A stretch of DNA of 64,000 nt from an archaeon GW2011_AR15 (GCA_000830295.1 CP010425.1:806884-870883), one strand, 5' to 3'. Shown: positions 1,539-35,337, counted from the stretch's first letter. Notes: generated by a model from the letters alone, not told the origin. Program-made: numbers and translations.

Positions 1539-1929
1539 AGGTCAATTCCTCGCAATTGTTGATATAAAACCTGTATTTCTCATTAATTGTGATATTCTCA
1601 ACCTCAGCCTTCCTTCTTTCTTTCCCTATTATCACAGGCTCAAAGACAACAGTCCGGATATCCCCTGAATCGGAAACAATGGTAAGGCTGGTTATGTTTT
1701 GGTTGTAATTCTTGCTGTCAAACTCAAACTTCAGCAGGTTATTCGTATATTGCGGATTGATTACCTCATAATTCATACTGCCGCAGTCAAACTCATCTTT
1801 TCTGGCGTTAATAGTAAGGAAGCCGGTCCTGAAAAATCCAAAGATCTGCGTAATAAACATAAAAAGGAAAAATACAAAGGCCATAGTAAGCAGCATCTTT
1901 AGTTTTGAATATTTTGCCATTTTCAGCAT
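1522..1929 (-). CDS. Small membrane protein in the pilus locus (one N-terminal TM helix)
   Basis: ORF with N-terminal hydrophobic segment LLTMAFVFFLFMFITQIFGFF. Tightly packed and overlapping its neighbours in the pilin gene array. Confidence 0.35.
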   Translation of the reverse strand: MLKMAKYSKLKMLLTMAFVFFLFMFITQIFGFFRTGFLTINARKDEFDCGSMNYEVINPQYTNNLLKFEFDSKNYNQNITSLTIVSDSGDIRTVVFEPVIIGKERRKAEVENITINEKYRFYINNCEELTYEKKI

Positions 1930-3371: not shown

Positions 3372-3380
3372 TTTAATCTA

Positions 3381-6866: not shown

Positions 6867-8336
6867 ATGGAACTAAAAGGCTATCATTATCTGATTTTAG
6901 GGCTGCTGCTGGCATTTGCTTTTTTCAGCACATACAGTGAAACGCATTTGGAGTATCCCTTCCCATACCATCATGATGAATGGCAGCACCTCGGCATCTC
7001 AATGCAGGCAATGGAAGAGGGATATAATAAAGTATATAATCCATTTCTTGGGGCCCCTGGATGGCATGCAGATCTCGAGTCAGGATTCCACCTGTTTTTG
7101 GCAAACATATTCCTCATGACAGGTCTTAATCCTGTTCTGAGCTACCAGTACCTTGCTGCTATATTTGCAGTAATTACAGGATTTGTCATTTTTCTCTGTG
7201 TTTACAGGCTTACAGGCAAATTTTATGCCGGAATTCTTGCATTAATTGTGTTTATCTCTTTAAAATCTAATGTAAATATACTTGGAAAAAGCTATTTTGT
7301 GCCTATGACAATGGCAATGCCCTTTATCTTCCTCTTTATCCTTTTCTTCCTCACCTCCCTGAAAGAGAAAAGCCATAAGAAATTCCTTTTTTCCTTTGTC
7401 CTGCTGTTTTTGATTTTCCTGATACATCCGCCGTCTGCAATCATACTCGGGATTCCTGTGCTCGTTGAAATCCTCTTCAATATTGGCTTTATGGAGAAGA
7501 TATATGAAAAATTCAGGTTTTTTTTTCTTGCGCTGCCTTTTTTTGCCCTTTTGGTATTTCTCCTGCTCTGGAAAGGGGAATGGCAGGCAACTCTTGGCTA
7601 TTTTTCAGACCTGCTGGTCTTTGAGCAGGGATGGGGGAAAATTGAGATTGCATATTTCCTGCCCGCATTGTACGGATGGGCGGCGACCTTGTTTGCAGTC
7701 TACGGGTTTGTAGTGGCCAATAAAATGAAATTAAGATTCTTCATGATATTTGCATTTGTTTCAATAGGCATGACTGCTTTTTTCAATATCTTTGGGTTTG
7801 CAGTAGTGATACCTTATTCAAGGGCAATCCATTACTCTATGCTTTCTCTTCTCCCACTGACGGCACTGGGGGTTTTAAGCGCATTACAATTAGTATACAG
7901 GAAGATTGAAAATAATGATGCATTGCAGACCCTGGCTTGCTTTGTATTTCTCCTGATAGTTGTCAGTTCCTCTTATACTCTTGACACGCAGTATAAGACC
8001 TATGGGCAGCTTCCACTGGATAGGCAGGATTACAATGCACTTATATGGATAAAAGAAACTTATGGTTCTGATAATGTTCTTGTTACGCCGTATTTCATGA
8101 CGTCTGCAGTTTATCCTGTAAGCGGAAGCAAGGCAATCTCCCTGATACCTTCGCAGATGGGTGGTGGCCTTATAGAAGAAAACCTGAACTTCTACACATA
8201 TACCTGCGATAAGCAGGAAGAAATTGCAGGGCAGGCAAATGCAAGCCTTGTACTGAGCAAGCTTCCCATAGAGTGCAGTTTTCTGGAACAGGTTTATTCA
8301 AGAGGGGATTTTGTCTATTCTGTAAGAACTATTTAA
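6867..8336 (+). CDS. Polytopic integral membrane protein (>=10 TM), possible GT-C-fold glycosyltransferase or glycan polymerase
   Basis: 489-aa ORF dominated by hydrophobic helices with a soluble C-terminal ~120 aa. No confident family motif recognised. Confidence 0.45.
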   Translation: MELKGYHYLILGLLLAFAFFSTYSETHLEYPFPYHHDEWQHLGISMQAMEEGYNKVYNPFLGAPGWHADLESGFHLFLANIFLMTGLNPVLSYQYLAAIFAVITGFVIFLCVYRLTGKFYAGILALIVFISLKSNVNILGKSYFVPMTMAMPFIFLFILFFLTSLKEKSHKKFLFSFVLLFLIFLIHPPSAIILGIPVLVEILFNIGFMEKIYEKFRFFFLALPFFALLVFLLLWKGEWQATLGYFSDLLVFEQGWGKIEIAYFLPALYGWAATLFAVYGFVVANKMKLRFFMIFAFVSIGMTAFFNIFGFAVVIPYSRAIHYSMLSLLPLTALGVLSALQLVYRKIENNDALQTLACFVFLLIVVSSSYTLDTQYKTYGQLPLDRQDYNALIWIKETYGSDNVLVTPYFMTSAVYPVSGSKAISLIPSQMGGGLIEENLNFYTYTCDKQEEIAGQANASLVLSKLPIECSFLEQVYSRGDFVYSVRTI

Positions 8337-14036: not shown

Positions 14037-15251
14037 TCAGAGCATTCTGGCTAATTTTACAAGTTTTCTCTTCACAGGCCCCAGTTTCTGAAGCCCGCCA
14101 TGGGTCGCAAGATTCAGGCCGAGATTATCACAGCATAATAAGCAGCCGTTTTCCTCACGCTGCCACATATTCCCGATGTTTCTGAAATAAGGGTCTTTCA
14201 CATCATAGTCAATCGTGTGCTTCCTGAAAGTGCACTGCCTGCTCCCCATCCATATTTCTTTTATGCTTTTTTCATAGATGTTGCCTATTGGTATCCTGAT
14301 TGATTTAAGACATGAGTTGACATTACCGTCTCCAAGTATCCTCAGGAAAGTCCAGCCGGCATAGCATGGGATTGTGCCTATAATTGACTGGTCATACACA
14401 CCCTTTTCAGTGTTTCCCTGCAGCCTCCTGAGAAACTGGTCATAGTTCCTGAATTCAATCTTATGGTTATATTTCCTCTCCCAGTAATGGAATTTCGGCC
14501 AGATGTTCCTCACTTTGTCAGCCAGCCATTCCCTCTGCTCCTTGTTCAGCATAAGCACATCAGTTTTTCCGGGGACAATATCTGTGGGAGTGAAGTCTAT
14601 TCCAGTAACCTTTACTCTGAATGCAAATTCCACCATGTTTTCGAAATCATCGTAATTGAGGGTTGAAATTACATCGTAGATGAACAAAGTCGGTTTGTTT
14701 GTCCTGTATTTCTGCTTAAGCTTATAGAAGTGCTTGAACATGTGCTCTACCCTGTAGAATGCCTCTTTTGTCTTGTTTGGGTGGACCCTGTCATATGCCT
14801 CAGGAGAGCCTGCCCAGACACTGCAGTTCATGTTGTCAACTCCTGCTTTTACAAGCCTCTCAGCCTTTTTTTCGTTTACAAGAGTGAAGTTATTGCTCAT
14901 GTCGCACCTTATGCCTTTTTTCTTCACGTATTCCATTATTTCCACAGCATTGGGATGCATGAAAGGCTCTCCGCCACCTGTAAAGTAGATATCCCTTACA
15001 CCCAGGTCGTCAAGGTCGTCTATTAGTTTTTTCACAAGGGGATAAGGAAGAAACTTCTTTTTTGTCTCAGGCGTCATGGCAATCTCTCCCAGCAGAGGGG
15101 AATGGCACCAGCATCCTACGCAGTCGCTGTTGCAGCTGTTTGTTATGTCAATCTGCACAGTAAGCGGGCCGGTGTAAATTTTCCTGTCAAGTATGCCTGC
15201 GGCTATCTTTGCTTTCTGTACATTGTCCTTTAATCTATTCATCAATTGCAT
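14037..15251 (-). CDS. Radical SAM/SPASM-domain protein (paralog family member 2)
   Basis: QIDITNSCNSDCVGCWCHSPL CxxxCxxC. Clear full-length similarity to the 10055-11263 product (N-terminus ...KDNVQKAKIAAGILDRK vs ...KDKAQKYRIIAGILEKK). C-terminal CLLCCDNLG. Confidence 0.75.
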   Translation of the reverse strand: MQLMNRLKDNVQKAKIAAGILDRKIYTGPLTVQIDITNSCNSDCVGCWCHSPLLGEIAMTPETKKKFLPYPLVKKLIDDLDDLGVRDIYFTGGGEPFMHPNAVEIMEYVKKKGIRCDMSNNFTLVNEKKAERLVKAGVDNMNCSVWAGSPEAYDRVHPNKTKEAFYRVEHMFKHFYKLKQKYRTNKPTLFIYDVISTLNYDDFENMVEFAFRVKVTGIDFTPTDIVPGKTDVLMLNKEQREWLADKVRNIWPKFHYWERKYNHKIEFRNYDQFLRRLQGNTEKGVYDQSIIGTIPCYAGWTFLRILGDGNVNSCLKSIRIPIGNIYEKSIKEIWMGSRQCTFRKHTIDYDVKDPYFRNIGNMWQREENGCLLCCDNLGLNLATHGGLQKLGPVKRKLVKLARML

Positions 15252-16653
15252 TTTGCTTTAACCTGATGTCTGTCTCTATGTTCATTCCGACATTGTCACA
15301 GCTCCTGTGGCAGTTGATAACCTTAAAGTAAGGATGGCCCTTTTTTTCAGTCTTGGCCAAAAACCTGAATTCGTTGTATTTGTTTGAATACCATATATCT
15401 TTAAAGCTTTTTTCATGGAGATTTCCCAAAGGCATCTTGTGGCCTTTGCAGCATGGCAGCACATCCCCGTTTGGAAGTATCCTTGTGAATGTCCAGCCGA
15501 TATAGCACGGCATCCTGTCCACGATGTTAATATCATACTTCTGCTTTTTATTGTCTTTTATGCTGCTTATTCTCCTGTAGAGGCTGCCGAAGCCAAGAAT
15601 CCTTAAAAAGCTCAGCTTGAATGGGTTTTCAGTTGAGTAGCAAATGCTTTTCCTGTCGCAGCCTATGCACATGCCCTGGGAGAAGGCAAAGTCCAGTGAC
15701 GTTTTTGTTACGTTCCTTGCAGAGCTAAAATAGTCCTTAGGGCACCGTATTTTTTTGCTGTTCTCTTCCACTCTAAACCCTTCCGGTAATGTATTCCTGT
15801 AAAACCTGCCGAACTCAATGAACTCATCATTATGCTCATTTCCGAAAGTAAAGTAATTCTCTTTTTTCTTTAATTTCCTGAACTGCTCAACCATGCTCTC
15901 CATATGCTGTTCGCTCAGCTTCAGGCTGTCTGATTTTCCCTTCACTATATCCGCAACCTGGAACTCAATAAACTCAACCTGCGTATCAAGCGCAAAATTT
16001 ATCATTTCCTCAAGCTCATGGTAGTTCTTATTGGAAATTACATTGTATATCTTAACCACTGGCAGGCCGCTATGTTCTTTTTTTAGAGAAGCAAGATGGA
16101 GAAGGTTTTCCCTTATTCTTTCAAAGGTTTTTTCTGTCTGGTTTGGATGCGTTTTTACGTAGGTTTCTGCTGTCCCTGCCCACAGGCTTAATGTAATCCT
16201 GTCAACGCCAATCTCTGCAAATTCTTTCAGGATTTCTTTTGATACAAGCGTGAAGTTGGTTATCAGATGGAGAACAAGGCCTTTCTCCTTAATTGCCCTG
16301 ACAATTTCCATGAAATATGGATACATCATAGGATCCCCGCTTCCTGAAAGCTGTATTTCTCTTGTCCCGTTTTCAGCAGCCTGCTCAATAAGAGTCAGGA
16401 CAGTATCCTTCGGAAGGTGCTTCATCTTCCATTCTCCCCTGAACTTCAGCTTACCCATAAGCTCGGAATGGCACCAGCATCCTACACAGTTCAGGTTGCA
16501 GTTGTTTGTCAGGTCGAGCTGTATAATCTGGGGGAAAGAAAAGGCTTTATTTCCTGCCTCAATCCCCTTTATAATATCTCCTGAGAAATCAGTGAAAATG
16601 CTCTGGGGATAAGGATCATAGTGCCTTACAACCTCCTGAGTATCCTGTTCCAT
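15235..16653 (-). CDS. Radical SAM/SPASM-domain protein (paralog family member 3, with an extra Cys insert)
   Basis: QLDLTNNCNLNCVGCWCHSEL. An additional CIGCDRKSIC cluster. C-terminal MPCYIGWTFTRILPNGDVLPCC...CHRSCDNVG. Confidence 0.7.
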   Translation of the reverse strand: MEQDTQEVVRHYDPYPQSIFTDFSGDIIKGIEAGNKAFSFPQIIQLDLTNNCNLNCVGCWCHSELMGKLKFRGEWKMKHLPKDTVLTLIEQAAENGTREIQLSGSGDPMMYPYFMEIVRAIKEKGLVLHLITNFTLVSKEILKEFAEIGVDRITLSLWAGTAETYVKTHPNQTEKTFERIRENLLHLASLKKEHSGLPVVKIYNVISNKNYHELEEMINFALDTQVEFIEFQVADIVKGKSDSLKLSEQHMESMVEQFRKLKKKENYFTFGNEHNDEFIEFGRFYRNTLPEGFRVEENSKKIRCPKDYFSSARNVTKTSLDFAFSQGMCIGCDRKSICYSTENPFKLSFLRILGFGSLYRRISSIKDNKKQKYDINIVDRMPCYIGWTFTRILPNGDVLPCCKGHKMPLGNLHEKSFKDIWYSNKYNEFRFLAKTEKKGHPYFKVINCHRSCDNVGMNIETDIRLKQNAIDE

Positions 16654-16699: not shown

Positions 16700-18808
16700 T
16701 TATTCTATATATAGGCCGATAGTGCTTATTATTTTGCCGAACCCAAGCTTCTGGTTTTCAAAGTCATCTATTTTTACCCATACTCTGCCAGATCTCAGAA
16801 TCTGGTGGTTTATGCTGAACCTGTATACAATCCACTTCTGATGCCCTGATATGGTAACTCCGCCGATATTGAACCATTCCCTATTATCATAGCTGAGGAA
16901 TATCTTTATTGGCCCGGATTTCGCCTGCCCGAAAGAGTTGTCCCAGATTTTTATTTTCAGCACAAGGTCAATTTTCTTTTCAAAACAAGTCCCGGGAGTC
17001 TTTAGCACGATGCCGGCCCACCCGAGGAATGCCCTTGCATTTTCCCCGTGCATTATATTATCTTTTCCGCCGTAGCACATGCTTTCTGCCGGAGTTTTTA
17101 TTACCCATGAGCCCAACGGCTCGTGGCTAAGCTCGCTTTTTCTAATGCCAAGATGGACAGTATCAACAGTTTTTCTTTCTTCAATAAACCTTTTGATTTT
17201 GCTGTAGATCGGATTCTGTCTTTCTGGTTTTGCCAGTAGGGGCTGGGGAGCCTGCGCTGCTGCTTCCACTGTCTTTTCCGGCATTTGTGTTGGCTCTTCT
17301 TTTTCTCCGGACAGGATGCTTTCAGGGTTGGGATGGTATAATGTTCCGTCAATATCAGCAATCTGCTTCTTGAAAAAGTCAAATTTTTCCTCAAATGACG
17401 GCTCGCTGCCGCCCCCTTCCAATGCCAGCATGGTCGCTTCCTTGGCTTCCTTGAGGTTGGTCTCAAGCATTGGGATGTCAAGCTCTTTTAGCAGGGCCAG
17501 CATCCTTTTTGTCCTGTCCTTCCTGACCTCATATGTGTTTTCCCCGTTGTCAGAAACCCAGTGTATGTGCCTGAAGGCTTCATCCAGTATCTTTATGCCG
17601 AATTCCTCGCGCTTCTCATAGACATCTGTATCGTCTATAAGGTGAAGCATGTTCACGGATTTGACTGCTGTGAGGTATTTCCTGTTCTTTCTTATGAAAT
17701 CCAGAGTCATCTGGAACTCTTCCTCTCCCTCTCCCGGATAGCCAATCATGGTGAAAATGAAGATAGGGATGCCCACTTCATGGGTTCTCTTTAATGTCCC
17801 CTCTATTATTTCTCTTGTGTATGGTTTCCTCATGTTCCTCAGCACTTTGTCTGAGCCGGATTCAACGCCATATTCAATCTTGTAGCACCCTGATTTCTTC
17901 ATTTTTGTAAGGAGCTCTGTCGTCATCCTGTTGGAAGGTATTGCCTGGCCGAACCATTTTATTTTTAGATTTTTCTGGAGTATGAGGTCGCAGACCTTTT
18001 CGAGCTTCTTTATATCCCCATTGAAAGTCGGGTCAGTTACAGTGAACTTTGTAATCCCGTTATTCCTGACATGGTATTCAATCTCTCCCACAATGTTCTC
18101 CGGCTCCCTGTACCTGTAGCCCTCCCACAGTCCTTTTATCTTGCAGAAAGCGCAGTTGGCAGTGCATCCTCTTGACCATTCAAGAGTGAGGGATTGCGTT
18201 GTATATTGTGTTAAGTCAAATCCCCTGTAGGTCGGGAAGGGGAATTCATCAACATCTTCTTTGTGGGGCCGCGGCGAATAGCTGGAATATTTTCCGTTCT
18301 TGTGAGTGATCAACCCGGGTATGTTTTCAAGGGGCTTTCCTTTTTTGCATGCATCAAGAATATCGAGGAGGGTATCTTCCCCTTCATTTACAACATAGGC
18401 ATCCACAAGATTAGGAAGCCTCTCCACAAATATCTTCCTTGAATCTTCGGTTGAGCAGGCAGGCCCGCCGAGGAGTATTATTTTTTCCGGAATCTTCTCT
18501 TTTATCCTCTTGATAAGCTCGATAGTTATCCTTTCCTTTGGGTCAACCACAGAAAAACCGACGATTGTTGCATTGCTGTCAAGAATCCTTCTGGCTGCGT
18601 AATCAATCAGCTGGTTGATGTGCTGTTTAAGTATGTCAAAAGTATAGTCGTTCCTCCAGAAATTTTTGTTCTCGAAATGCCAGAGGTATTTCAGGGAATC
18701 ATCTGTGTTGTTATGGACATAAATATTGAAGTCAAATACCTCAACCCTGATTCCCTTTGATTCCAGGAAAGTAGACAGGTAGGCAATTCCTGTAGGAGGG
18801 TTGTCCAC
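16700..18808 (-). CDS. Cobalamin-binding (class B) radical SAM protein with a ~230-aa C-terminal extension
   Basis: N-terminal B12-binding-like Rossmann region, then SRGCTANCAFCKIKGLWEGYRYR (CxxxCxxC). 702 aa. The C-terminal ~230 aa (…WVKIDDFENQKLGFGKIISTIGLYIE) has no recognised family. Confidence 0.75.
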   Translation of the reverse strand: MDNPPTGIAYLSTFLESKGIRVEVFDFNIYVHNNTDDSLKYLWHFENKNFWRNDYTFDILKQHINQLIDYAARRILDSNATIVGFSVVDPKERITIELIKRIKEKIPEKIILLGGPACSTEDSRKIFVERLPNLVDAYVVNEGEDTLLDILDACKKGKPLENIPGLITHKNGKYSSYSPRPHKEDVDEFPFPTYRGFDLTQYTTQSLTLEWSRGCTANCAFCKIKGLWEGYRYREPENIVGEIEYHVRNNGITKFTVTDPTFNGDIKKLEKVCDLILQKNLKIKWFGQAIPSNRMTTELLTKMKKSGCYKIEYGVESGSDKVLRNMRKPYTREIIEGTLKRTHEVGIPIFIFTMIGYPGEGEEEFQMTLDFIRKNRKYLTAVKSVNMLHLIDDTDVYEKREEFGIKILDEAFRHIHWVSDNGENTYEVRKDRTKRMLALLKELDIPMLETNLKEAKEATMLALEGGGSEPSFEEKFDFFKKQIADIDGTLYHPNPESILSGEKEEPTQMPEKTVEAAAQAPQPLLAKPERQNPIYSKIKRFIEERKTVDTVHLGIRKSELSHEPLGSWVIKTPAESMCYGGKDNIMHGENARAFLGWAGIVLKTPGTCFEKKIDLVLKIKIWDNSFGQAKSGPIKIFLSYDNREWFNIGGVTISGHQKWIVYRFSINHQILRSGRVWVKIDDFENQKLGFGKIISTIGLYIE

Positions 18809-18828
18809 ACCCCATGGAGGCGGGTTTA

Positions 18829-21800
18829 CTAGGATAATATCTTTAATTTTTTCTTCACCTCTGCTGGTTTTTTCTTTGCCTGCTCATCATAAAGATTCAC
18901 GAGGGGAGTCTGCACGCCAAGTTCTTTGCAGAGTGCTGCTATCCTCTTTACCCTTTCTTTCCTTATCTCATAAGTGTTAGTCAGATCTGAAGTATGCCAC
19001 TTGTAAAACCCGTCATTTTCATTAGGCACAACAATTCCTGCCTTTTCCGGCTCGGCTGTAAGATTTGTTCCTGCTATTAATAAACATGGAGTAAGGCTTG
19101 AAATCATCTTTATATATTTGGCGTGGCTCTTTACAAAATCATAAGTTTCCATAAATTCTTTTTCGCCTTCACCAGGGTATCCGATTATAAGGTTTATGCC
19201 GATAGTTATTCCTGCATTGTGCATCCTCGGCAGCAGGTCCTGCAGATGTTTCATCCTGTAGGGCTTGTTCATTTTCTCAAGCACGGTATCAGAGCAGCTT
19301 TCAACACCGAACACCATCACTCTACAGCCGGCCATCCTCATTTTCCTCAAAAGCTGGTCTGACATTCTTGAGTTTACAATTCCCTGGGCAGACCAGTTTA
19401 CCTCCAGGTTCCTCTTTATTATATGGTTGCAGATCTCTTCCAGAGCCTTCAGATTCCCGTTGATGACAAGGTCCCTGAAATTAAAGCTGTTAACCCCGTA
19501 GTTTTTTATGTGCATCTCCATCTCATCCACGACATCCTTGGCAGGCCTTGCAGTGTAATTTGCCCTGTACATCCAGTCAAGGCAGAAATTGCATCTTGCG
19601 ACACATCCCCTGCTGGCTATCATAGGAAGGGAATTTTCTTTGTATTTTTTCAGGTTAAATTCCATAAAAGTAGGAGATGCCAGTTCTCCAAGGTCCTTTT
19701 CAAAATGCCATGGATGCATCTTCTCTTTTTCTTTTCTCGGGCCTAATTCCCCAGAGCTGTTGGCTTTTAACACAACCACGCCAGGCAAGTCTTCAATCGG
19801 CTGATTTTCTTTTAATCTTTGGACTATTCTCGGCATCATTAACTCCGCTTCCCCTATCACAGCGAAGTCAATATAATCCTTCATTTCAGACTGCCAGAAA
19901 TAGCCATCGTCGCTGTTAGGGCCGCCTATGCATATCTTTAGCTCAGGATTGTTTTTCTTGAGGATCTTTGCCAGCATGCATGAAAAATTATAATTAGCAG
20001 CATTTACAGACAGGCCTACAAGCACAGGCTTGTCATCCATGATCCGCTTTATCATATTGTTCATATATGGTTTATAATTCTGGAAGAGGTATTCGTGGAA
20101 TTTTTCTTCAGACCATTTGAAATATTCCTCCATGTGCCATGCCCTCTTATCATTTTCAGGCGCAAGATTATAGAGGTCAATATTCATATCAAAGACTTCA
20201 GTTTTTACTCCGTGCTTTTTCAGGTTTGAAGCAAGGTATGCAATGCCGAGAGGAGGCATCAGGACATCCCACGGCGGGCACATGATGAGGAAGACGTCGG
20301 TTTTTCTCACTATCTCTTTTTCTTTATACCCGGCAAAAGCAGAGAGATTATCTTCATATACCTCAAGATTTAATTCTTTGGCAAGATTAAGTAATCTTCT
20401 TAATCTCCCTTTTCTTATGCTGTCTGTATTAGTTCCGTCTTTTGTCCTCCACCTGACTTCAGCTACACTATTATCTTCAGGCAGGATAATCCCATATTCG
20501 TCTTTGTTTTCCATGAGTTCTGAGTTGTATACAACATTGCAGGTTTTTGCATTGCAAATTCTATCAATGTACTGCCTATTTCTTTTTATGAAATCAAGGG
20601 TCATCTGGAAATCCTCTTCTGTTTCCCCAGGATAGCCTACTATGAAGTTTGGCTGGGCATTAATCCCCATTTCATAGGAATATTTCAGAACTTTCTCTAT
20701 TGTTTCAATAGTTGTGTATTTTTTCATTGCTTTCAATATCCTATCAGATCCGGTCTCAACACCGAACATCAAAACATCACACCCGGCCCGCTTCATCTTT
20801 TCCAGCAATTTCTGTGTAAGATTTTTCATTGGTATGGCATTGGCAACCCACCCTATTTTCAACTTATGACTTATAATAAGATCACAGAATTTATTTAGTT
20901 CGGGTATATTGCCATTTATCAGCAAATCACTAAAATTAAATTTAGTAATTCCTTTCTGGACATGATAATAAATCTCCTGGAATACCTGCTCAGCAGGCCT
21001 TACCCTGAACTTTCCCATTATATTCACATCATTGCAGAAAGTACATTCTCCAATGCATCCTTTAGAAAAATAGAGGGCAATCCTCTCCTGGGCGATATAA
21101 TCTTTATTGTAGTCTATTTTCAGGGCTTTAGACTTGCTTAGGTCAAATGCTTCCCTTTCTTTAAACTTTCCTTCATGCCGGAAGATAAAAATACCGGGAA
21201 TACCTGAAATTTCAAGATAGGTTTTTTTTGCTTTTATAGCATCCACCAGTTCTATAATTGCTTCCTCTCCATCTCCAACCACAAAATAATCTATGGTTGA
21301 CTTCCTGAATCTTTCCAGTTCTCTCTTTACAGAGCATGAAGGCCCGCCGACTACAATTTTTACATTATTATCAATATTCTTAATTAATTTAGCTAATTCT
21401 ATGATCATTAATGTATTTTCCTGATAGGCGGAAAATCCGATAACTCTGGATGTCTGCACCAATTCTTTTGCAAATTCAACCAAATCCACCTTAAATCTCT
21501 TTTTTAATTCTTCAAAGAAAGGATATTCTGTCCAGTTGATTTTTAAATCCTGGTGCCAGTATTTCTGCAGGTCTTTATGGCGCCTATACAGCTTTAGATT
21601 TATATCACATATCTCCGCATTGAGTCCATGTGAAACCATATATTCTTTCAGGTAATTTACCCCAGTCGGCGGAGTATTCACTCCCCATACAGGGCAGACA
21701 ACAAGTGCCAGATCCACAGGTTCATTCTTTTTCTTGTCCTCCCCTGACTGCGATAGATTTGAGAAATACACATCATAGCCGAGCTCTTTTACAAATTCAT

Positions 21801-23130
21801 ACGCTCTTTTTGCCCTGTCTAACCTTACTTCATAAGTAAGCGTTCCGTCTGACCACGCTACAGGGTCAGTACTCGTTATTCCCAGCCTTCCGGAAGCAAG
21901 GCCTATAGGCGCTCTTTTGGGAAGAATGCAGGTATTGATGTTAGTTATACCTGTTATCACATCCCTGTTCCTTTTTATGAACTGGAGAGTCTCCTGGAAC
22001 TCCTCTTCCGTCTCTCCAGGATAGCCGACTATAAAGTTTGGCTGCACATTGATTCCTGCCTCCCTTGTCCACTTCATTATCCTTTCTGCATCTTCTGCTG
22101 AAAACATCTCATACTTATTCATCTTCTTGAGCACAGAGTTTGAGCCTGACTCAATCCCGAAATTAATAGTGTAGCAGCCGGCGTCCGCCATTTTGAAGAG
22201 AAGCTCTTTCGGCATGTCCTTTCTTGCAATGGCCAGGCATATCCATTTTATTTTCAGGTTGTTTCCGATTATCAGGTTGCATAATTTTTCCAGTTCTTCA
22301 TAGTTTCCGTTTATTGCAAGGTCATGGAACCAAAAATGTGCAATCCTGTTTACATAGGCATGATATCTTAGTTCATTATAGACATCGACTGGGTCTCTTG
22401 TCCTGTGGTGGCCCTGGAACGGCTTGTCCTCACAGAATCCGCAGTTTGCTATGCATCCCTGTGAGAACCTCATGCCTATTGTCTTTTCAGTATATCTGGA
22501 CAGGTCGAGTTCTTCATAGGTAGGGAAGGGAAGTTTTTCCAGGTCAATAAGCTGTCTTGGAGCATATTTCTCAGGATATTTGCTTGATTTCAGACCTTTT
22601 ATTTCTGATAGTTGCTCAATAGATTTTCCTCTCTTTATTCCCTGCATAAGCTCAAGAATTGTATCCTCTCCTTCCCCAACAACAAAAAAATCAGCATAAT
22701 CCTTGTAATATTCCCTTTCTTCAGGCAGCCATACGCCCTTCCCGCCGAGGATTATTTTTATGTCTTTGTCTAGGAATTTTACAGATTTCATCAGCTCAAA
22801 GGAGTAGAAAATGCTTGCTGCGGATATTGAAAACCCAAGGGCAAGCGGTTTTTCATCCGCTATTCTTCTGGCGAGTTTCTCAAAATCAAACTTCAGCAGA
22901 GGCTTCAGCTTTTCAAACCTGTCTTTCTCCATCCAGAAATGGGCTTTTTCGTTTATCCAGTATCCCTTATCCTTTGCCCGATGATATTCCTCTATATTCA
23001 GGTCCAGTATCTTTGTTGCTATGTCATTTACCCTAAGGTATCTGGAGATGGATGCCAGGCTCATCGGAGGCATGTTTATTCCCCATACAGGGCACTGAAT
23101 CAGGAGTATATCCGGTTGTATGCATATCAC
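18829..23130 (-). CDS. Triple-module cobalamin-binding radical SAM fusion protein (three complete B12-binding plus radical SAM units in one 1433-aa polypeptide)
   Basis: Three CxxxCxxC cores spaced ~470 aa apart: SQGCIANCGFCEDKPFQGHHRTR, SKGCIGECTFCNDVNIMGKFRVR, SRGCVARCNFCLDWMYRANYTAR. Each is preceded by a class-B N-terminal motif (LIQCPVWGINMPP, LVVCPVWGVNTPP, LIMCPPWDVLMPP). The reading frame is uninterrupted. Confidence 0.75.
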   Translation of the reverse strand: MICIQPDILLIQCPVWGINMPPMSLASISRYLRVNDIATKILDLNIEEYHRAKDKGYWINEKAHFWMEKDRFEKLKPLLKFDFEKLARRIADEKPLALGFSISAASIFYSFELMKSVKFLDKDIKIILGGKGVWLPEEREYYKDYADFFVVGEGEDTILELMQGIKRGKSIEQLSEIKGLKSSKYPEKYAPRQLIDLEKLPFPTYEELDLSRYTEKTIGMRFSQGCIANCGFCEDKPFQGHHRTRDPVDVYNELRYHAYVNRIAHFWFHDLAINGNYEELEKLCNLIIGNNLKIKWICLAIARKDMPKELLFKMADAGCYTINFGIESGSNSVLKKMNKYEMFSAEDAERIMKWTREAGINVQPNFIVGYPGETEEEFQETLQFIKRNRDVITGITNINTCILPKRAPIGLASGRLGITSTDPVAWSDGTLTYEVRLDRAKRAYEFVKELGYDVYFSNLSQSGEDKKKNEPVDLALVVCPVWGVNTPPTGVNYLKEYMVSHGLNAEICDINLKLYRRHKDLQKYWHQDLKINWTEYPFFEELKKRFKVDLVEFAKELVQTSRVIGFSAYQENTLMIIELAKLIKNIDNNVKIVVGGPSCSVKRELERFRKSTIDYFVVGDGEEAIIELVDAIKAKKTYLEISGIPGIFIFRHEGKFKEREAFDLSKSKALKIDYNKDYIAQERIALYFSKGCIGECTFCNDVNIMGKFRVRPAEQVFQEIYYHVQKGITKFNFSDLLINGNIPELNKFCDLIISHKLKIGWVANAIPMKNLTQKLLEKMKRAGCDVLMFGVETGSDRILKAMKKYTTIETIEKVLKYSYEMGINAQPNFIVGYPGETEEDFQMTLDFIKRNRQYIDRICNAKTCNVVYNSELMENKDEYGIILPEDNSVAEVRWRTKDGTNTDSIRKGRLRRLLNLAKELNLEVYEDNLSAFAGYKEKEIVRKTDVFLIMCPPWDVLMPPLGIAYLASNLKKHGVKTEVFDMNIDLYNLAPENDKRAWHMEEYFKWSEEKFHEYLFQNYKPYMNNMIKRIMDDKPVLVGLSVNAANYNFSCMLAKILKKNNPELKICIGGPNSDDGYFWQSEMKDYIDFAVIGEAELMMPRIVQRLKENQPIEDLPGVVVLKANSSGELGPRKEKEKMHPWHFEKDLGELASPTFMEFNLKKYKENSLPMIASRGCVARCNFCLDWMYRANYTARPAKDVVDEMEMHIKNYGVNSFNFRDLVINGNLKALEEICNHIIKRNLEVNWSAQGIVNSRMSDQLLRKMRMAGCRVMVFGVESCSDTVLEKMNKPYRMKHLQDLLPRMHNAGITIGINLIIGYPGEGEKEFMETYDFVKSHAKYIKMISSLTPCLLIAGTNLTAEPEKAGIVVPNENDGFYKWHTSDLTNTYEIRKERVKRIAALCKELGVQTPLVNLYDEQAKKKPAEVKKKLKILS

Positions 23131-23204
23131 CCTCAGCTACAGAATACTTAGGATTTTATATAATATACGAAAAACATAAATAAACTTAATTTAATTAAGT
23201 AGTC
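23131..23204. promoter_or_regulatory. AT-rich divergent intergenic region with a TATA-like box, likely bidirectional promoter
   Basis: 74-bp gap between the divergent starts of the 1433-aa radical SAM gene (-) and the AsnB-like gene (+). Contains ggattttatataatatacg (TATA-box-like) at 23151-23169. Confidence 0.35.
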
Positions 23205-29674: not shown

Positions 29675-29881
29675 CTAGTCAAGATATCCGAGGGATTTCA
29701 GCCTTTCTGCAATCTCAGTCTGGTTGTATTCTCTGCTTTCACCGGTGTAGTTGGTATCTTGATTGCCTTTATTTCTCAGCAAATAGACAATCTCCTCTTT
29801 GTTACTATAAACGAACAGAGAGATAATTACCAGGAATAAAATTACAGCGATTATAATCAATTTTTTTATTGAGTGTTCCAT
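29675..29881 (-). CDS. Small single-TM protein (68 aa) ending in the ...ERLKSLGYLD motif
   Basis: Hydrophobic helix IIIAVILFLVIISLFVY, then a 40-aa polar tail. 16-nt overlap with the upstream gene. The C-terminal motif is shared with two neighbouring enzymes. Confidence 0.4.
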   Translation of the reverse strand: MEHSIKKLIIIAVILFLVIISLFVYSNKEEIVYLLRNKGNQDTNYTGESREYNQTEIAERLKSLGYLD

Positions 29882-31065
29882 ATTCCCATTAGCCTGTTAA
29901 TCCTTTCTTTCTCCATTCTGGACGACCGGTATATAGTCTCCCTTTTTCCCTGCCTGTTGAAATAAGGGAACCAGTATTCCCATACAATCTCTTTATCCGG
30001 GGTGACTTCTATTACATGGCCTTTCTCGCTCTCTGAAATCAATGTGTTCCCATTAGGCAGCCTCTGGACAGAGCCCATAGACTCGCTGAAAAAGCTGTCA
30101 GGCGGATTGCCTGTATAATTCCAGACAATCTCCTGCTTCAGCGGGTCCAGCTCAAGCACTCTGGAATAATCTCTCGTTTCTCCTCCGTTGTCAAAAAGGA
30201 GTATGTTTCCGTTTGCCAGCATCGTAGGCATATGAGTGCCTTCCAGAAAATCAGGCCCTGATGCCCACACAATCTCTTTTGAATCTTTATCCAGGATAAT
30301 CAGCAGGTTGACATTATGCAGGCTCAAAAGCATGTTTCCCTGCTGAAACCTGCTGTCTGTCTGGTCCAGGCTATTTTCAGGCAGCTCCTGGACAGAGTTT
30401 ATGTGATAATAGTCATATATATCTATATTGTCATCTTCTTTGGCAAACAATTTTGCCCATATGTATTCCGGAATTTCAAGGCTGGATTCATAATGGCGTT
30501 TTCTAATCTCATCAAAATGGTCAAATGTTGACCACCTGTCTATTGTCTCCCCGGTTTCAGATATTCTTATTATGCTGTCAAATAATACTTTTCTGCCCTT
30601 ATAGGCTTTCTTTTCCCTTGATATTGTCAGGAAAGTGTGATTGTATGACCTCCTCATGTCATGGTGAATCATTATGTTTTTTTTCAAGAGCAATGAAAAA
30701 TTTTTGTCATATAGTGCAAAATAGTTGTCATTGCCTCCCCAATCCCCGTCAGCTACTACCCCGTCATCAAATAATATCTGCAGGTTCCCGTCTCCGGGGA
30801 GAGTCACCAAAAGGTTGCCTTCCATATCGATTATAAACCTGCCGTCAACTACAGTGTAGCCGTCATATGCCCTGTCTTTGTCATAAAGCACAACTCCAGA
30901 CAGGTTCCTGTCCTGCACATCTTCTGTGTATTCCAGATAAGGAAGAGACCTTAATTTCTCAAGCCCGAGCTGGGACCTATACTCAGCTTCCATATATGAA
31001 GAAAACACTGAAAAGAGTCCAAATAGGATGAGCAGCACAATGCCGAAGATAAGTATCCTTTTCAT
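29866..31065 (-). CDS. Membrane-anchored beta-propeller protein, arylsulfotransferase (ASST)-like
   Basis: N-terminal TM helix. Repeated propeller-like segments (GNILLFDNGG, PNGNTLISESEKGHVIEVTPDKEIVWEY, DYYHINSV). The ASST assignment is tentative. Contains EKLRSLPYLEY after the TM helix. Confidence 0.45.
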   Translation of the reverse strand: MKRILIFGIVLLILFGLFSVFSSYMEAEYRSQLGLEKLRSLPYLEYTEDVQDRNLSGVVLYDKDRAYDGYTVVDGRFIIDMEGNLLVTLPGDGNLQILFDDGVVADGDWGGNDNYFALYDKNFSLLLKKNIMIHHDMRRSYNHTFLTISREKKAYKGRKVLFDSIIRISETGETIDRWSTFDHFDEIRKRHYESSLEIPEYIWAKLFAKEDDNIDIYDYYHINSVQELPENSLDQTDSRFQQGNMLLSLHNVNLLIILDKDSKEIVWASGPDFLEGTHMPTMLANGNILLFDNGGETRDYSRVLELDPLKQEIVWNYTGNPPDSFFSESMGSVQRLPNGNTLISESEKGHVIEVTPDKEIVWEYWFPYFNRQGKRETIYRSSRMEKERINRLMGIWNTQ

Positions 31066-31066
31066 A

Positions 31067-31873
31067 TTACATATAGCCGAGGCTTCTCAGTTTCTGCATA
31101 TTATATTCTTTCTCTGTGTCCCTGCCCTGCCTTTCTGAGTTTCTGTCTTTGTCTATCTCCTTTATTATTTTGTCGATTGTATCTGCTCTGGATTTTACAG
31201 GGGAAGAGCAGCATTTGCAGCCGATGCTCCTGAACCTTTTCCCGTCTTTGGCAAAATACAGATTCACGACAGGGATATTCTCTTTTTTTATGTATTGCCA
31301 GATATCCAGCTCTGTCCAGTGGAGTAAAGGGTGTATCCTCACATGGTTGGAGTCTTTGAATTCTGTTGCATATATATCCCATCCTGACAGTTCTGCATCC
31401 TGAGCTGAGCCTATGCCTGCTTCATTCTTCTCTTCTTTCGTGACATTCCACCTGAATTCCCTGTCTCTTGGGGAGAAATATCTTTCCATGCCCCTTATTG
31501 AATTCTCGTCTCTCCTTATGCCTACTATAACTGCATCGAATTTGTGCTTTTCAATCTCCTTTTTCAGTATCTCGGTTTTTCTTGACGTGCATGTTTTTTC
31601 TTTGAACTTTTCTTCGCTTTTCCCGACCACCAGGTCAAGTTTCCACTCTTTTGCAATCCTGTCCCTGAATTCATATGTTTCCTCATACTCTGTTTCAGTA
31701 TCTATGTGCAGGACTTTGAAGGGGATCTCGTCGTAGAATGCTTTTCTGCAGAGATACAGCAATGTAGTGGAATCTTTCCCTATGCTCCACAGCACAACAG
31801 GGTTCTTAAATCTCTTCTTTACTTCCCGGAGTATGAAGATTGATTTGCTTTCTAAATCCTTCAAATTTGCCAT
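31067..31873 (-). CDS. Sulfate adenylyltransferase small subunit (CysD)-like PP-loop ATP pyrophosphatase
   Basis: LWSIGKDSTTLLYLCRKAF PP-loop. HPLLHWTELDIWQYI and SERQGR motifs, consistent with my recollection of CysD/PAPS-reductase family proteins. C-terminus ...QKLRSLGYM. Confidence 0.7.
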   Translation of the reverse strand: MANLKDLESKSIFILREVKKRFKNPVVLWSIGKDSTTLLYLCRKAFYDEIPFKVLHIDTETEYEETYEFRDRIAKEWKLDLVVGKSEEKFKEKTCTSRKTEILKKEIEKHKFDAVIVGIRRDENSIRGMERYFSPRDREFRWNVTKEEKNEAGIGSAQDAELSGWDIYATEFKDSNHVRIHPLLHWTELDIWQYIKKENIPVVNLYFAKDGKRFRSIGCKCCSSPVKSRADTIDKIIKEIDKDRNSERQGRDTEKEYNMQKLRSLGYM

Positions 31874-31919
31874 TGGATAAATTATTCTATATCTGGTTTA
31901 TCAATCTTTCTTTTTGATT

Positions 31920-33206
31920 TTAAATGAGATATCCAAGGGAGAGAATTCTTTTTCTGATCTCATCACTTACATCATGCTCCCTTTCCGCAATTCCTATCTT
32001 TTCCCTGAGTTTGTCATTCCTCTGCAAAAACTTGAGGTATTCATCTTCAAATCTTTTGCCCGGATACAGCAGGCTATTTTTTTCAAGAGGGTCATTGGAA
32101 AGGTTGTAGTATTCAAAGTAATCGGGCCTTAATATATATTTTTCAGTTTCAGTCCTTATCGAGATTCCGCCCCTTGTTTCTGTAAAGAGAAATTCATGGA
32201 GCCTGTCTTTTTTTCCTGCAATTAAATCATATGTGCTTTTTCCCTGGAATGTTTTTGGCAACCTGTATCCGAGCGTATGCAGTATTGTTGGTGCGATATC
32301 CAGGGACTGGACCTGGGCAGTGATTCTTTTTACATTTACATCAACTTCTTCAGGAAACCTTATTATCATGGGGACTTTGATTATCTCCTCATACGGGTCG
32401 CCAAGCCCGTGGCCTATTTTTCCGTGCTCCAGGAATTCTTCCCCATGGTCTGATGTGAAAATTAGTATTGTATTGTCCAGAAGTTCAAGTTCTTCCAGCT
32501 TACTATATAACCTTCCAATATACTGGTCATATTCATGCAGCTCAGAATCATAGGCGTTTTTTATTATTTCAACATCACTTTCATTTAATATGCTGAATTC
32601 CTCTTCCTCCCACAAATCAAAATCAGGCTTGCTCATGTTTAGTATCTTGCTCGGCTGGTTGTATACATGAGTGTCATATGAATGTATGAAAAGGAAAAAC
32701 CTCCTGTCTTTCACTTCCTCAAGATGCTTTATCAGCTTTGGGTAAAAATCAGAAAAGGACTGCCCTTCTTCATCATCAAAGAAATCAAATCCTTGGTCGT
32801 ATCCGAAGTCCCTGCTGACAAAAACATCCCCGGTATAGCCGAAGGTGTAGTATCCCTTTCCCCGCAGGAACTTCTGTATTGTCATTGTGTTCGGGTTTAT
32901 GAAATTGTCAACTGAGAGGACGCCGTGTGCTGAGCCGTATAAAGAAGCCAGCATGCTCACATGCGAAGGCAGGGTCCAGTCATAATTCACAAAGGCATTC
33001 TCGAACAATACGCCTTTTTCAGCCAGCCTGTCTATGTTTGGGGTCACATTGCTGTTTCCATAGGCTCCAAGACGGTCTGCCCTTAGGGTATCCTCGGATA
33101 TCAGGATTACATTATACTCCTTTGGCTTTTGGATTACATCTGCAATTACAGTTATAGAGATTACGACAGTTATAAGCAGGAAAAAGAAAATCAGGACTTT
33201 TTTCAT
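31920..33206 (-). CDS. Sulfatase-family (alkaline phosphatase superfamily) enzyme, secreted or anchored
   Basis: Signal/TM, then ILISEDTLRADRLGAYGN metal-binding motif and DWTLPSHVSMLASLY active-site region. C-terminus ...KRILSLGYLI. Confidence 0.7.
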   Translation of the reverse strand: MKKVLIFFFLLITVVISITVIADVIQKPKEYNVILISEDTLRADRLGAYGNSNVTPNIDRLAEKGVLFENAFVNYDWTLPSHVSMLASLYGSAHGVLSVDNFINPNTMTIQKFLRGKGYYTFGYTGDVFVSRDFGYDQGFDFFDDEEGQSFSDFYPKLIKHLEEVKDRRFFLFIHSYDTHVYNQPSKILNMSKPDFDLWEEEEFSILNESDVEIIKNAYDSELHEYDQYIGRLYSKLEELELLDNTILIFTSDHGEEFLEHGKIGHGLGDPYEEIIKVPMIIRFPEEVDVNVKRITAQVQSLDIAPTILHTLGYRLPKTFQGKSTYDLIAGKKDRLHEFLFTETRGGISIRTETEKYILRPDYFEYYNLSNDPLEKNSLLYPGKRFEDEYLKFLQRNDKLREKIGIAEREHDVSDEIRKRILSLGYLI

Positions 33207-35107
33207 TTTAAGAGAGGCTTGCCGTCAATCTGCTCTGGCATACTTATATTCAGGAAATTCAGCACCGTCGGCGCAATGTCAACAAGGCTGGCTGAGTCCT
33301 GATTGATCTGTTTATTTGAAAACAAGACACCAGGCACAAATGTCGGGTCTATAAGATGGTCTCCCTGCCATTTTTTTGTGTTGTCAAGTATTGCATTCCT
33401 CGTGAATCCGCCGATTGCGGACTGCCATTCCATCCTGTATCCCGGATTGAAGCCTATTATGAGGTCAGGGGCATTCTCAAGCGAGTCTCCGGAATAGATG
33501 TCTCCTCTCCTGTAAACCTTATTTATAACTTTCCTTCCTGTTTTTGGGTCTGTCAGATTTTCAAGCTTTTCAATTATCTCATTTTCCACTGCCTCTTTAT
33601 CATCTATGCTTACTGTCCCGTGCTTTTCCCTTCCTTCAAGATTTATGTATATGCTGGAGAAGCCGACAGAATATGCTTTTGTCTCATCCCATATCACATA
33701 CTCAAACAGGCTGTCTTCCACACCCTGCTTTATTACTGTGTTAAGCTTCATGAATCCGTTCTGGGAAAGCCAGGTGTTTATGTTGACAGCGCGCTCAAAT
33801 GAGCTGAATCCGTGGTCTGAAAAAATCAGGACCATGGTGTCATTGCCTACTTCTTTCATTATCTTGCCAAGCAGCTCGTCTTTCCTCATATAGTAGCCTG
33901 TGAGGACCTCATTCATGACAATCTCATCAGAGATGTTGGTCAGCACTTTGTTGTCCCAGAAAAGATGCTGCAGCCTGTCAGATGAATCAAATGCAAATGC
34001 CAGCACACCGGTTTCCTTCTCCTTGAATTCATTGAATTCTTTCCAGAACATGGCTTCCCTTTCCTTTTCTATTTCATAGACCTGGCTGAGGAATGCTTTT
34101 TCATCTAGGAAGCCGTTTACATATCCATCGGTTTCTTCAGGCATCCCTAAAGTGTAATACAGCCCGAGCTCATCTGCCAGCTCCTTTGCATAACCTTTGG
34201 GTGAAGAAATATCAACAATGGGGTTTGTCGGGTCAATCTGGACTGTTGTTATGTACATCTGGAAGGGTTCAGTGCTTATCAGGTATGCCTTGAACATGCC
34301 GTGCACACTCCTGAGGAAACCGGCATCAAACTTCACTTTTACCCAGTCGCTCCATTTCTCCCTGTCCAGCTGGTACTCCCTTCCGTCTATGGTTAGTATG
34401 GCAGAATATTCGTCTGTTATTTCAATATCCATGCCTTCTTTTACGTCCTCTATTTTGCTGAATTTCCTGACTTTTGGGCCGAGGACATTGGTGTGAATTG
34501 ACGAGCCTTCTTTTGTTACATGTATTACTTTCTGCTTGTCTATATCTTCTTCTGTGTAGAAAGCATAGCCGCTCAGGAACCCCTTTATGTCAGGGACTCC
34601 AAGGCCCGAGAACAGGTTTCCATTAACCTTTTCAGGCGGAAAAGTTGCAGGCCACCTTATTACTGAAGTCGGAATTCCTGCCTTGCTTGTAAGTTCCCAG
34701 AAAGGGGTTGCCCTTATCAGAGAGGCATAGCTTCCTCCGAATCCTTTCTGGCTTGTTATTGAAAGCTCAGGGAGGTAGGTCTGCGGATCCCTTATTATGA
34801 AATCAAACATATTGTGCTTCCCAGGATTTGTCCCTGTGGAGATTGAAGTCCAGGCAACAGGGCTTTCAGGAGGATTGCTTGTTTCAAGCTTCAGGAATGC
34901 ACCTGTTTCAGCCAGTTTCTTGAAATTTGGAAGTTTTCCTTCTGCCATAAGCTTGGCAGTTGCCTTATAATCCATGGCATCTATCCCAATAAGAAGAACC
35001 TTGCCTTTTGGACTGATTTTATCTCCCCCCTTTGAAAGCGCAAATATGAAATACAGGATAACTACAATAACCACGACGTTAATAAACCTTTTTAATGCCT
35101 TATTCAT
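33203..35107 (-). CDS. Alkaline-phosphatase-superfamily type I phosphodiesterase / nucleotide pyrophosphatase-like protein
   Basis: N-terminal TM helix, then VLLIGIDAMDYKATAKLMAEGKLPNFKKLAETGA, typical of the Phosphodiest (ENPP-like) family. 634 aa. Confidence 0.65.
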   Translation of the reverse strand: MNKALKRFINVVVIVVILYFIFALSKGGDKISPKGKVLLIGIDAMDYKATAKLMAEGKLPNFKKLAETGAFLKLETSNPPESPVAWTSISTGTNPGKHNMFDFIIRDPQTYLPELSITSQKGFGGSYASLIRATPFWELTSKAGIPTSVIRWPATFPPEKVNGNLFSGLGVPDIKGFLSGYAFYTEEDIDKQKVIHVTKEGSSIHTNVLGPKVRKFSKIEDVKEGMDIEITDEYSAILTIDGREYQLDREKWSDWVKVKFDAGFLRSVHGMFKAYLISTEPFQMYITTVQIDPTNPIVDISSPKGYAKELADELGLYYTLGMPEETDGYVNGFLDEKAFLSQVYEIEKEREAMFWKEFNEFKEKETGVLAFAFDSSDRLQHLFWDNKVLTNISDEIVMNEVLTGYYMRKDELLGKIMKEVGNDTMVLIFSDHGFSSFERAVNINTWLSQNGFMKLNTVIKQGVEDSLFEYVIWDETKAYSVGFSSIYINLEGREKHGTVSIDDKEAVENEIIEKLENLTDPKTGRKVINKVYRRGDIYSGDSLENAPDLIIGFNPGYRMEWQSAIGGFTRNAILDNTKKWQGDHLIDPTFVPGVLFSNKQINQDSASLVDIAPTVLNFLNISMPEQIDGKPLLK

Positions 35108-35298
35108 TTTTTGCTGTTCTTCAGTCTCTTTATTATGTTTTTTACAGGGTTTATTATCAGGAAGGCTATGACTGCCCCCAGAACAGCCACAATCGTCTGC
35201 CAGAAAGAGCCGATTATAATCCCGCCGGTTCCCGGGTCAATGTATGCGTAGCTACTGTGAACTAACAATATGAAAATCACTAAATATGTCCCCCACAT
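35104..35298 (-). CDS. Small two-TM membrane protein (64 aa)
   Basis: 4-nt overlap with the downstream NPP-like gene suggests translational coupling. Mostly hydrophobic, with a YIDPGTGG motif. Confidence 0.3.
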   Translation of the reverse strand: MWGTYLVIFILLVHSSYAYIDPGTGGIIIGSFWQTIVAVLGAVIAFLIINPVKNIIKRLKNSKK

Positions 35299-35337
35299 TT
35301 GTATTTAAGTTACCCGAGGAGTATTTAAACGTTTTGA

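Follow-up and report, generated by a model that had tools for sequence, protein, structure and literature searches.

Four class-B radical SAM modules parted by a conserved one-base frame offset, in a putative surface-glycan cluster of a probable DPANN archaeon

How would a cell decode and use several complete class-B radical S-adenosylmethionine (SAM) modules set in a row? Class-B radical SAM enzymes catalyse some of biology's hardest alkylations, and to our knowledge every characterised member is a single-module protein. The question is raised by a locus of the archaeon GW2011_AR15, in a stretch of 64,000 nucleotides (nt) (GCA_000830295.1, CP010425.1:806884-870883; the whole stretch is called the window hereafter), where one open reading frame, ORF1, encodes three such modules in a single polypeptide and the next, ORF2, encodes a fourth module and a C-terminal domain (Table 1). 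Herein we describe that the fourth module begins upstream of its annotated start, in a frame offset by one base from ORF1, that this offset and the stretch upstream are kept in a diverged relative, and that the modules stand in a glycan gene cluster, whose product they may tailor.

A sequence-only reading of the window had claimed three complete class-B units in ORF1, each with its own B12-type region and its own CxxxCxxC core. In fact all six motifs quoted for the three modules are present, and the lengths given for the two reading frames (1433 and 702 residues) as well as the 20-nt gap between them are correct. Scanned whole against Pfam, ORF1 gives three B12-binding and three Radical_SAM stretches; with the modules scanned singly, each of the three, and the fourth as well, exceeds the gathering scores of both B12-binding (PF02310, 32.1 bits) and Radical_SAM (PF04055, 29.5 bits), the values being 39.2 and 71 bits for module 1, 49.2 and 81.7 bits for module 2, 40.8 and 66.3 bits for module 3, and 38.3 and 84.9 bits for module 4, whose cluster motif is CTANCAFC. 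The B12-binding domains, named beforehand as the point where the claim might fail, were detected by profile hidden Markov model (HMM) in every module. An artefact of a single assembly at the module junctions, the other concern, is excluded: the exact 1433-residue protein is present on 18 contigs, and the ORF1/ORF2 gene pair is found in three independent assemblies (one from Logan, two from ENA) with identical DNA at the module 3-4 junction. It follows that the junctions between modules 1 and 2 and between modules 2 and 3 are not artefacts of one assembly; a sequencing or assembly error at the module 3-4 junction is ruled out by the identical DNA of the three assemblies together with the diverged relative described below.

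The anatomy of the module 3-4 junction merits a closer look. ORF1 ends in ...GTG AAG AAA AAA TTA AAG ATA TTA TCC TAG TAA, and the frame of module 4, which is -1 relative to ORF1, overlaps this end. For 22 codons 5' of the annotated GTG the ORF2 frame is open without any ATG, GTG or TTG, reading, behind two stops, AGKEKTSRGEEKIKDIILVNPPPWG and then VDNPPTG from the GTG onwards. Within this upstream stretch DIILVNPPPWG corresponds to the openings of modules 1-3, DILLIQCPVWG, DLALVVCPVWG and DVFLIMCPPWD. When 49 family members are aligned, P12, P13 and W14 of the stretch show a conservation of at least 90%, and in a model of the extended ORF2 the first beta-strand of a Rossmann-type domain is made up of residues 6-9 (IILV), with a local predicted local distance difference test score (pLDDT) of about 89. 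The earlier picture of a stand-alone module 4 that begins cleanly with the GTG has to be given up, because a conserved N-terminal strand and loop are encoded 5' of that codon; gene callers truncate module 4 in all assemblies examined.

The closest relative is a lineage from Hainich groundwater (loci L004 and L006; Nanoarchaeota metagenome-assembled genome (MAG) GCA_038045225.1), the modules of which are 75-78% identical to those of the window in protein. Both of its loci have the same frame offset and the same 29-nt island GGTGAAGAAAAAATTAAAGATATTATCCT; in both the GTG is replaced by GTA, and the first canonical start lies 40 codons into module 4. Synonymous sites are saturated between the window and this lineage (pS, the proportion of synonymous differences, 0.68-0.86). 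In the 31 codons from the island to the first canonical start in L006 there are 16.2 synonymous versus 6.8 non-synonymous differences (omega 0.058), the corresponding pN of the module 4 core is 0.07, and about 700 codons are open in both lineages. So low an omega despite saturated synonymous sites argues that the stretch upstream of any canonical start is translated; as judged from these substitutions, the N-terminal stretch of module 4 is under purifying selection.

Unlike the window, other relatives carry the junction in frame. One of them, the protein P0123 of a Woesearchaeota MAG, carries module 3 together with module 4 and the C-terminal domain in one frame (...LVNLYDEQTKPQPLTKKANNMPTIMLVNPPPWGVDNPPTG...), and two more database proteins, P0062 and P0002, are in-frame fusions too. 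To judge from these junctions, the modules apparently were in frame at first, and the offset would be an inherited and tolerated one-base change; a single A added to the A6 run leads to ...VKKK-IKDIILVNPPPWG and to a four-module chain of about 2,140 residues. A scan of metagenome contigs for further junction variants, made with a back-translated DNA pattern, gave only the Hainich lineage.

By which mechanism, then, is module 4 decoded? It would be translated with its full N-terminus, and the start that we favour, albeit tentatively and with a chance slightly short of even, is a near-cognate one at the in-frame ATT, led by the Shine-Dalgarno (SD)-like GGTGA 7 nt before it; the protein would then begin with (M/I)KDIILVNPPPWG. 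Such an SD-led start is supported by GGTGA-type motifs at other internal genes of the window, placed 4-6 nt ahead of the ATG; ATT, on the other hand, is a rare start codon. The conservation of the offset is known from two lineages only. A rather unlikely, yet still considerable, competitor is a single chain of about 2,140 residues made by programmed -1 frameshifting, or from one transcribed extra A, at G_AAA_AAA_T, from which a fixed ratio of three-module and four-module isoforms would result, the longer product of about 240 kDa containing the trans-frame peptide …EVKKKIKDIILVNPPPWG…. The frame restored by one extra A, the in-frame junctions of P0123, P0062 and P0002, the perfect conservation of the 29-nt island while synonymous sites elsewhere are saturated, and the fact that module 4 lacks a canonical start in both L004 and L006 all favour this recoding. 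So does an archaeal precedent, for in fucA1 of Saccharolobus solfataricus a programmed -1 frameshift at an A-rich heptamer is established (PMC1616953), and there, much as in the ORF pair of the window, two reading frames meet at an A-rich run with an offset of -1, and both are required for the full enzyme. However, the fucA1 site is a canonical A_AAA_AAT with experimental proof, whereas the site in the window has been read from sequence alone and, in the zero frame AAG AAA AAA TTA, amounts to G_AAA_AAA, which is not a canonical X_XXY_YYZ heptamer; an SD-led start at ATT is just as good a reading of it. Moreover, folding against shuffled controls revealed no stable stimulatory RNA structure downstream of the junction (z-scores 0.3-1.0), and the folds differ between the two lineages; the GGTGA lies 2 nt from the run, closer than the -1-stimulating spacing of dnaX, and a run of six As is short for transcriptional slippage.

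That the offset is simply an inherited frameshift mutation, with ORF2 a decaying remnant or a protein truncated N-terminally to the GTG at 18808, is very doubtful. The gene callers' starts, at the GTG in the window and 40 codons in for L006, would fit it, and so would an ancestral in-frame state; but some 700 codons have stayed open in two lineages with saturated synonymous sites, at the low pN of the core and the low omega upstream, the GTG itself is not conserved in L004 and L006, and a truncation there would cost the Rossmann-type domain its central beta-strand 1, along with the conserved PPW loop. The SD-led start at ATT stays the favoured reading. Beside it we record that an in-frame relative from Woesearchaeota (L007, 5843 region) has two ATG codons just before beta-strand 1 of module 4 (NNMPTIMLVNPPPWG), and an internal start may make a separate module 4 even in fused relatives.

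Table 1. Position, strand and main characters of the features discussed (window coordinates)
Feature	Position	Strand	Remarks
ORF1	18829..23130	-	1433 residues, GTG start; three class-B (B12-binding + radical SAM) modules
Module 1	21721..23130	-	residues 1-470; CPVWGINMPP and CIANCGFC
Module 2	20305..21720	-	residues 471-942; CPVWGVNTPP and CIGECTFC
Module 3	18832..20304	-	residues 943-1433; CPPWDVLMPP and CVARCNFC; ends ...AEVKKKLKILS, then stop
Module 3-4 junction	18821..18853	-	SD-like GGTGA; A6 run at 18845-18850; ATT in the module 4 frame; ORF1 stop (TAG TAA)
ORF2	16700..18808	-	702 residues from the annotated GTG; 20 nt from ORF1
Module 4 with true N-terminus	17444..18853	-	EKIKDIILVNPPPWG, then VDNPPTG...; annotated GTG at 18808 falls after beta-strand 1
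Linker from module 4 to C-terminal domain	17231..17443	-	partly of low confidence; model segments 503-506 and 521-534 have pLDDT <50
C-terminal domain	16700..17230	-	about 150-175 residues; predicted rare beta-sandwich, carbohydrate-binding-module-like fold
Two radical SAM/SPASM genes	14037..16653	-	472 and 404 residues, directly 3' of ORF2; Pfam; conserved operon partners
Divergent promoter region	23131..23204	.	between ORF1 and an AsnB-like gene; 45-nt AT-rich block with TATA-like element
Sulfation block	29866-37782		ASST-like protein, CysD, two sulfatases, Phosphodiest-family protein, SPASM radical SAM gene

As to the age of the modules, for which the sequence-only reading had looked to pairwise identity, the four of the window are 33-40% identical to one another. 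Their counterparts in other organisms are closer to them, at 41-77%: for module 1 the identity is 60% with the first module of P0002 and 77% with that of the database protein P0003, for module 2 it is 47% with the third module of P0002, and for module 3 it is 41% with the counterpart in P0002 and 75% with the second module of P0003. Since the modules resemble their orthologues more than each other, a recent tandem duplication of one module is excluded, and the comparison implies old, specialised paralogues, with each type conserved and probably of its own specificity. Their order, however, is not conserved. P0002, a single chain of 2096 residues, has all four module types arranged as M1-M4-M2-M3, with the same C-terminal domain behind them, while in the window the order is M1-M2-M3 in ORF1 and M4 in ORF2. 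Such permutation among relatives argues against an ordered assembly line, and a colinear one is unsupported, with the reserve that the typing of modules is approximate for distant bacterial proteins. Several sequential reactions on one substrate had been proposed for the fused modules; diverged and specialised paralogues fit distinct reactions, whereas the permuted order speaks against the ordered sequence.

Module 2 differs from its neighbours in composition, with a GC content of 0.369 (0.367 at third codon positions, GC3) as compared with 0.43-0.44 (GC3 0.47-0.54) in modules 1, 3 and 4. Moreover it is missing from the closest relative, where module 1 is joined straight to module 3 in both L006 and L004, so that by comparison the window carries an extra low-GC insertion. 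Its low GC content and this absence suggest an in-frame gain or loss of the whole module.

The C-terminus of ORF2 had been called an unassigned domain of 230 residues. In fact neither it nor the linker before it has a Pfam or NCBIfam match, and no membership of a carbohydrate-binding module (CBM) family is found by sequence. The model of the domain (pLDDT 90.4, from a 16-sequence alignment) is a beta-sandwich that matches solved CBMs in structure comparison, and we predict that the domain proper, about 150-175 residues after the linker, is a rare beta-sandwich of CBM-like fold. Its rarity is seen from a HMMER scan of 1.84 billion representative proteins, which gave only 14 relatives. In most of these the domain forms the C-terminal part of a class-B radical SAM chain, and a few are stand-alone proteins or fragments (92-245 residues); in one chain, P0226, the CBM-like domain occurs twice, N-terminal to a class-B module.

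Structure modelling covered module 4, as the extended ORF2 in AlphaFold, and the C-terminal domain, modules 1-3 being judged by sequence profiles. The model of module 4 (pLDDT 89.3) has its top Foldseek matches in OxsB, TsrM, CysS, QCMT and TokK, with E-values of 1e-17 to 1e-21. By sequence the best solved structure is 9CCB (E 4e-11), that is QCMT (MgmA), the glutamine C-methyltransferase of methyl-coenzyme M reductase (MCR) according to a 2026 review of B12 radical SAM enzymes. The solved class-B enzymes (QCMT/MgmA 9CCB, TsrM, TokK, CysS, OxsB) share with the modules an N-terminal Rossmann-type B12-binding domain followed by the CxxxCxxC core; they have one module per chain, in contrast to three or four per chain and a CBM-like domain in the window. 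Among curated NCBIfam families the best matches below threshold are PhpK-type, C-methyltransferases of peptides that are ribosomally synthesised and modified post-translationally (RiPPs; rSAM_ocin_1), ApyD, QCMT, HpnJ, BchE and BzaD. None of the four modules reaches a curated cut-off (best 100-148 bits against cut-offs of 280-750), and membership of a characterised class-B family (PhpK, rSAM_ocin_1, ApyD, QCMT, BchE, HpnJ, BzaD or TsrM-type) was dropped. The modules are class-B by domains and fold, their chemistry and cobalamin use being predictions; likewise the analogy once drawn with PoyB/C, GenK, Fom3 and TsrM holds as a resemblance at the level of the class and does not extend to any curated family.

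The order of multi-module chain, 472-residue SPASM enzyme and SPASM enzyme of about 400 residues recurs at two other loci, L005 (51-52% identity) and L034 (74%), and many relatives from bacteria carry a SPASM module within the multi-module chain itself. The cluster holds four GT2 and four GT4 glycosyltransferases, a PMT_2-like membrane transferase, and a transporter of the Wzm/Wzt type, in which a Wzt with ABC_tran and Wzt_C domains lies beside an ABC2_membrane permease; judging from this transporter and the glycosyltransferases, it is an ABC-transporter-dependent surface glycan cluster. Two AsnB-like amidotransferases, a carbamoyltransferase and a PGI/SIS protein are encoded in the window as well, and so are five radical SAM genes with SPASM, three additional single-module class-B ones and another radical SAM gene without a B12-binding match, which brings 14 radical SAM domains within about 45 kb of one glycan cluster. 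In the sulfation block CysD scores above its curated NCBIfam cut-off, with no CysN seen next to it, and neighbours of the Phosphodiest and CysD-like (PAPS_reduct) kinds recur in L005 and L007; the SPASM radical SAM gene of this block is placed like a sulfatase maturase. In another protein, P0205, which like P0226 is a domain-fusion ('Rosetta-stone') protein, a GT4 glycosyltransferase is fused to a class-B unit of the module 4 type. Upstream of ORF1 the 45-nt block of the divergent promoter region, TTAATTAAATTAAGTTTATTTATGTTTTTCGTAT-ATTATATAAAAT, recurs without a change in the Hainich lineage, despite the saturation of synonymous sites, and is probably a shared promoter or regulatory element.

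Several other parts of the window deserve mention. Two polytopic membrane proteins, of 489 residues (6867-8336) and 547 residues (44477-46120), have no Pfam or NCBIfam match and are weakly alike; from their sequences they are candidates for a glycan polymerase, a ligase or a GT-C-type transferase. At 801-6587 four small reading frames with hydrophobic N-termini adjoin a protein of 1068 residues with Ig, PKD and fn3-like repeats, and the reading frame at 1923-2435 starts with a signal like that of archaeal type-IV pilins (KAVSPLIATVLLVAMTISVG); this region may be a surface-appendage locus. At 55063-56785 three adjacent reading frames of 169-171 residues lack a Pfam match, the first two being clearly paralogous and the third weakly similar.

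With regard to the host, the nearest relatives carry Nanoarchaeota and Woesearchaeota labels. At many genes of the window a TATA-like box precedes the start codon by about 25-30 nt and an SD motif is missing, a spacing that indicates leaderless transcripts, as is the pattern in archaea; at a minority of internal genes GGTGA or GGAGG stands 4-8 nt before the start. A tRNA scan of the window found no tRNA. From the labels of the relatives, the leaderless pattern and the pilin-like signal, the host is probably a DPANN archaeon.

Altogether, the neighbouring glycosyltransferases, Wzm/Wzt, sulfation genes and SPASM partners lead us to infer a radical tailoring, probably C-methylation, of a surface glycan. 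ORF1 with modules 1-3 and ORF2 with module 4 and the C-terminal domain would act in the cytoplasm together with the two downstream SPASM enzymes, and would modify a sulfated surface glycan in several different radical reactions, most likely C-methylations; this glycan would be built by the glycosyltransferases of the cluster and exported by the Wzm/Wzt ABC transporter. In the ABC-transporter-dependent pathway the whole polymer is made on the cytoplasmic face, where oxygen-sensitive radical SAM enzymes of the cytoplasm could act on it; the beta-sandwich would keep the polymer close to the catalytic modules, and the fusion would serve co-localisation and stoichiometry and not an ordered assembly line. 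That the parts work together is supported by P0002, a single chain in which the C-terminal domain is joined to every one of the four module types, and by P0123, with its module 3, module 4 and the domain in frame. We regard this proposal, in which substrate and chemistry are deduced from context, as equally apt to prove right or wrong, and a number of points weigh against it. AprD4, a class-B-like dehydratase that uses no cobalamin, matches the module 4 model equally well in Foldseek; no cobalamin uptake or synthesis gene was seen in the window; with no curated family threshold reached, methylation stands only as the commonest class-B chemistry; and the jelly-roll of the C-terminal domain matches reelin and ephrin-receptor domains as well as CBMs. 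Moreover SPASM enzymes often act on peptides, and a protein or peptide substrate is thereby brought into consideration.

Such a substrate, a ribosomal peptide or a surface protein tailored as in proteusin-type pathways with their PoyB/C-like C-methyltransferases and SPASM maturases, seems improbable to us, even though several observations lean towards it: the best NCBIfam matches below threshold include RiPP C-methyltransferases (rSAM_ocin_1, ApyD), the SPASM partners are typical peptide maturases, AsnB-like genes occur in lasso-peptide clusters too, and genes of surface-protein and pilin-like kinds are nearby. But the scores of the RiPP families are far under the curated cut-offs, and the inspected gaps showed neither a precursor-peptide gene nor a RiPP recognition element, a leader protease or a cyclodehydratase; glycan genes dominate the cluster, its Wzt has a glycan-recognition domain, the C-terminal domain is CBM-like, and the GT4-radical SAM fusion of P0205 is known. 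The surface glycan stays the preferred substrate.

How far the architecture extends beyond this archaeon was seen from a search with ORF1, which gave more than 100 proteins of 1,000-2,500 residues in which B12-binding and Radical_SAM domains occur together, in many cases along with SPASM; their sources are Omnitrophota, Candidatus Lernaella, Candidatus Alcyoniella, Caldisericota, Cloacimonadota, Nanoarchaeota and other lineages. When modules were counted in the retrieved protein clusters by an HMM built from the modules, at least 30 clusters had three class-B modules and at least 22 had four, that is 52 with three or more among the clusters retrieved; many of the chains with four class-B modules have a precomputed SPASM match too. 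A genome scan adds Woesearchaeota, many Omnitrophota MAGs, Desulfobulbaceae and Myxococcales-labelled MAGs, as well as a reading frame of 2,098 residues in a MAG labelled Methanosarcinales. These multi-module proteins, for example those of 2,288 residues in Candidatus Lernaella stagnicola and of 2,358 residues in Candidatus Alcyoniella australis besides those of Omnitrophota, Woesearchaeota and Nanoarchaeota MAGs, are true homologues with two to four class-B modules, often plus SPASM. P0002 and the reading frame of L034 come nearest, with four modules, the same C-terminal domain and the same SPASM neighbours as the window, where the set is split by the -1 offset between modules 3 and 4 and the module order differs.

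The sequence-only reading had held triple radical SAM fusions to be undescribed. As regards papers this agrees with what we found, for no description of a multi-module class-B architecture turned up in the open literature on tandem, fused or multiple radical SAM domains or on class-B enzymes in polysaccharide pathways; in sequence databases, by contrast, such chains are abundant. The literature on fused radical SAM domains gave only two-domain cases of the FbiC type and unrelated fusions, neither the 2026 review of B12 radical SAM enzymes nor the RadicalSAM.org perspective mentions multi-module chains, and a preprint on giant proteins of Omnitrophota merely lists PF04055 among many Pfam families. 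FbiC, the F0 synthase and a CofG-CofH fusion, likewise has more than one radical SAM domain on one polypeptide for one pathway (it is mentioned in PMC11917521); its two domains, however, are not class-B and have fixed roles in the synthesis of cofactor F420, in contrast to the three to five modules in variable order of the present family. In function the likely analogues are PoyB/PoyC, CysS and TokK/ThnK, which place several radical methylations on one substrate, yet do so with an iterative single module or with separate proteins, on peptides or small molecules, whereas the window has four diverged modules in cis within a polysaccharide cluster. The architecture is thus widespread and, as far as we found, undescribed in papers, and in the window a known enzyme class takes on a new architectural form.

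In the broadest form of the proposal, these chains would be widespread, unstudied megaenzymes of ultra-small archaea (DPANN) and of bacteria (Omnitrophota), with three to five radical SAM domains each, performing multi-site C-methylation or C-C chemistry on surface polysaccharides held by a new carbohydrate-binding domain, with module 4 joined on here by A-run recoding into two isoforms; as a whole we consider this unlikely. What the present analysis adds to the original finding is the conserved one-base offset, the rare CBM-like domain and the glycan-cluster setting. Three to five linked radical SAM domains would be a new setting for class-B chemistry, and their fusion to a CBM-like domain, in some relatives to glycosyltransferases, together with the location beside glycan export genes, points to a radical tailoring of cell-surface polysaccharides. 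The conserved one-base offset is a testable candidate for non-standard decoding in DPANN archaea, be it recoding or a non-canonical start. Moreover the family is concentrated in lineages known from metagenomes only, DPANN and Omnitrophota, the surfaces of which probably mediate attachment to their hosts.

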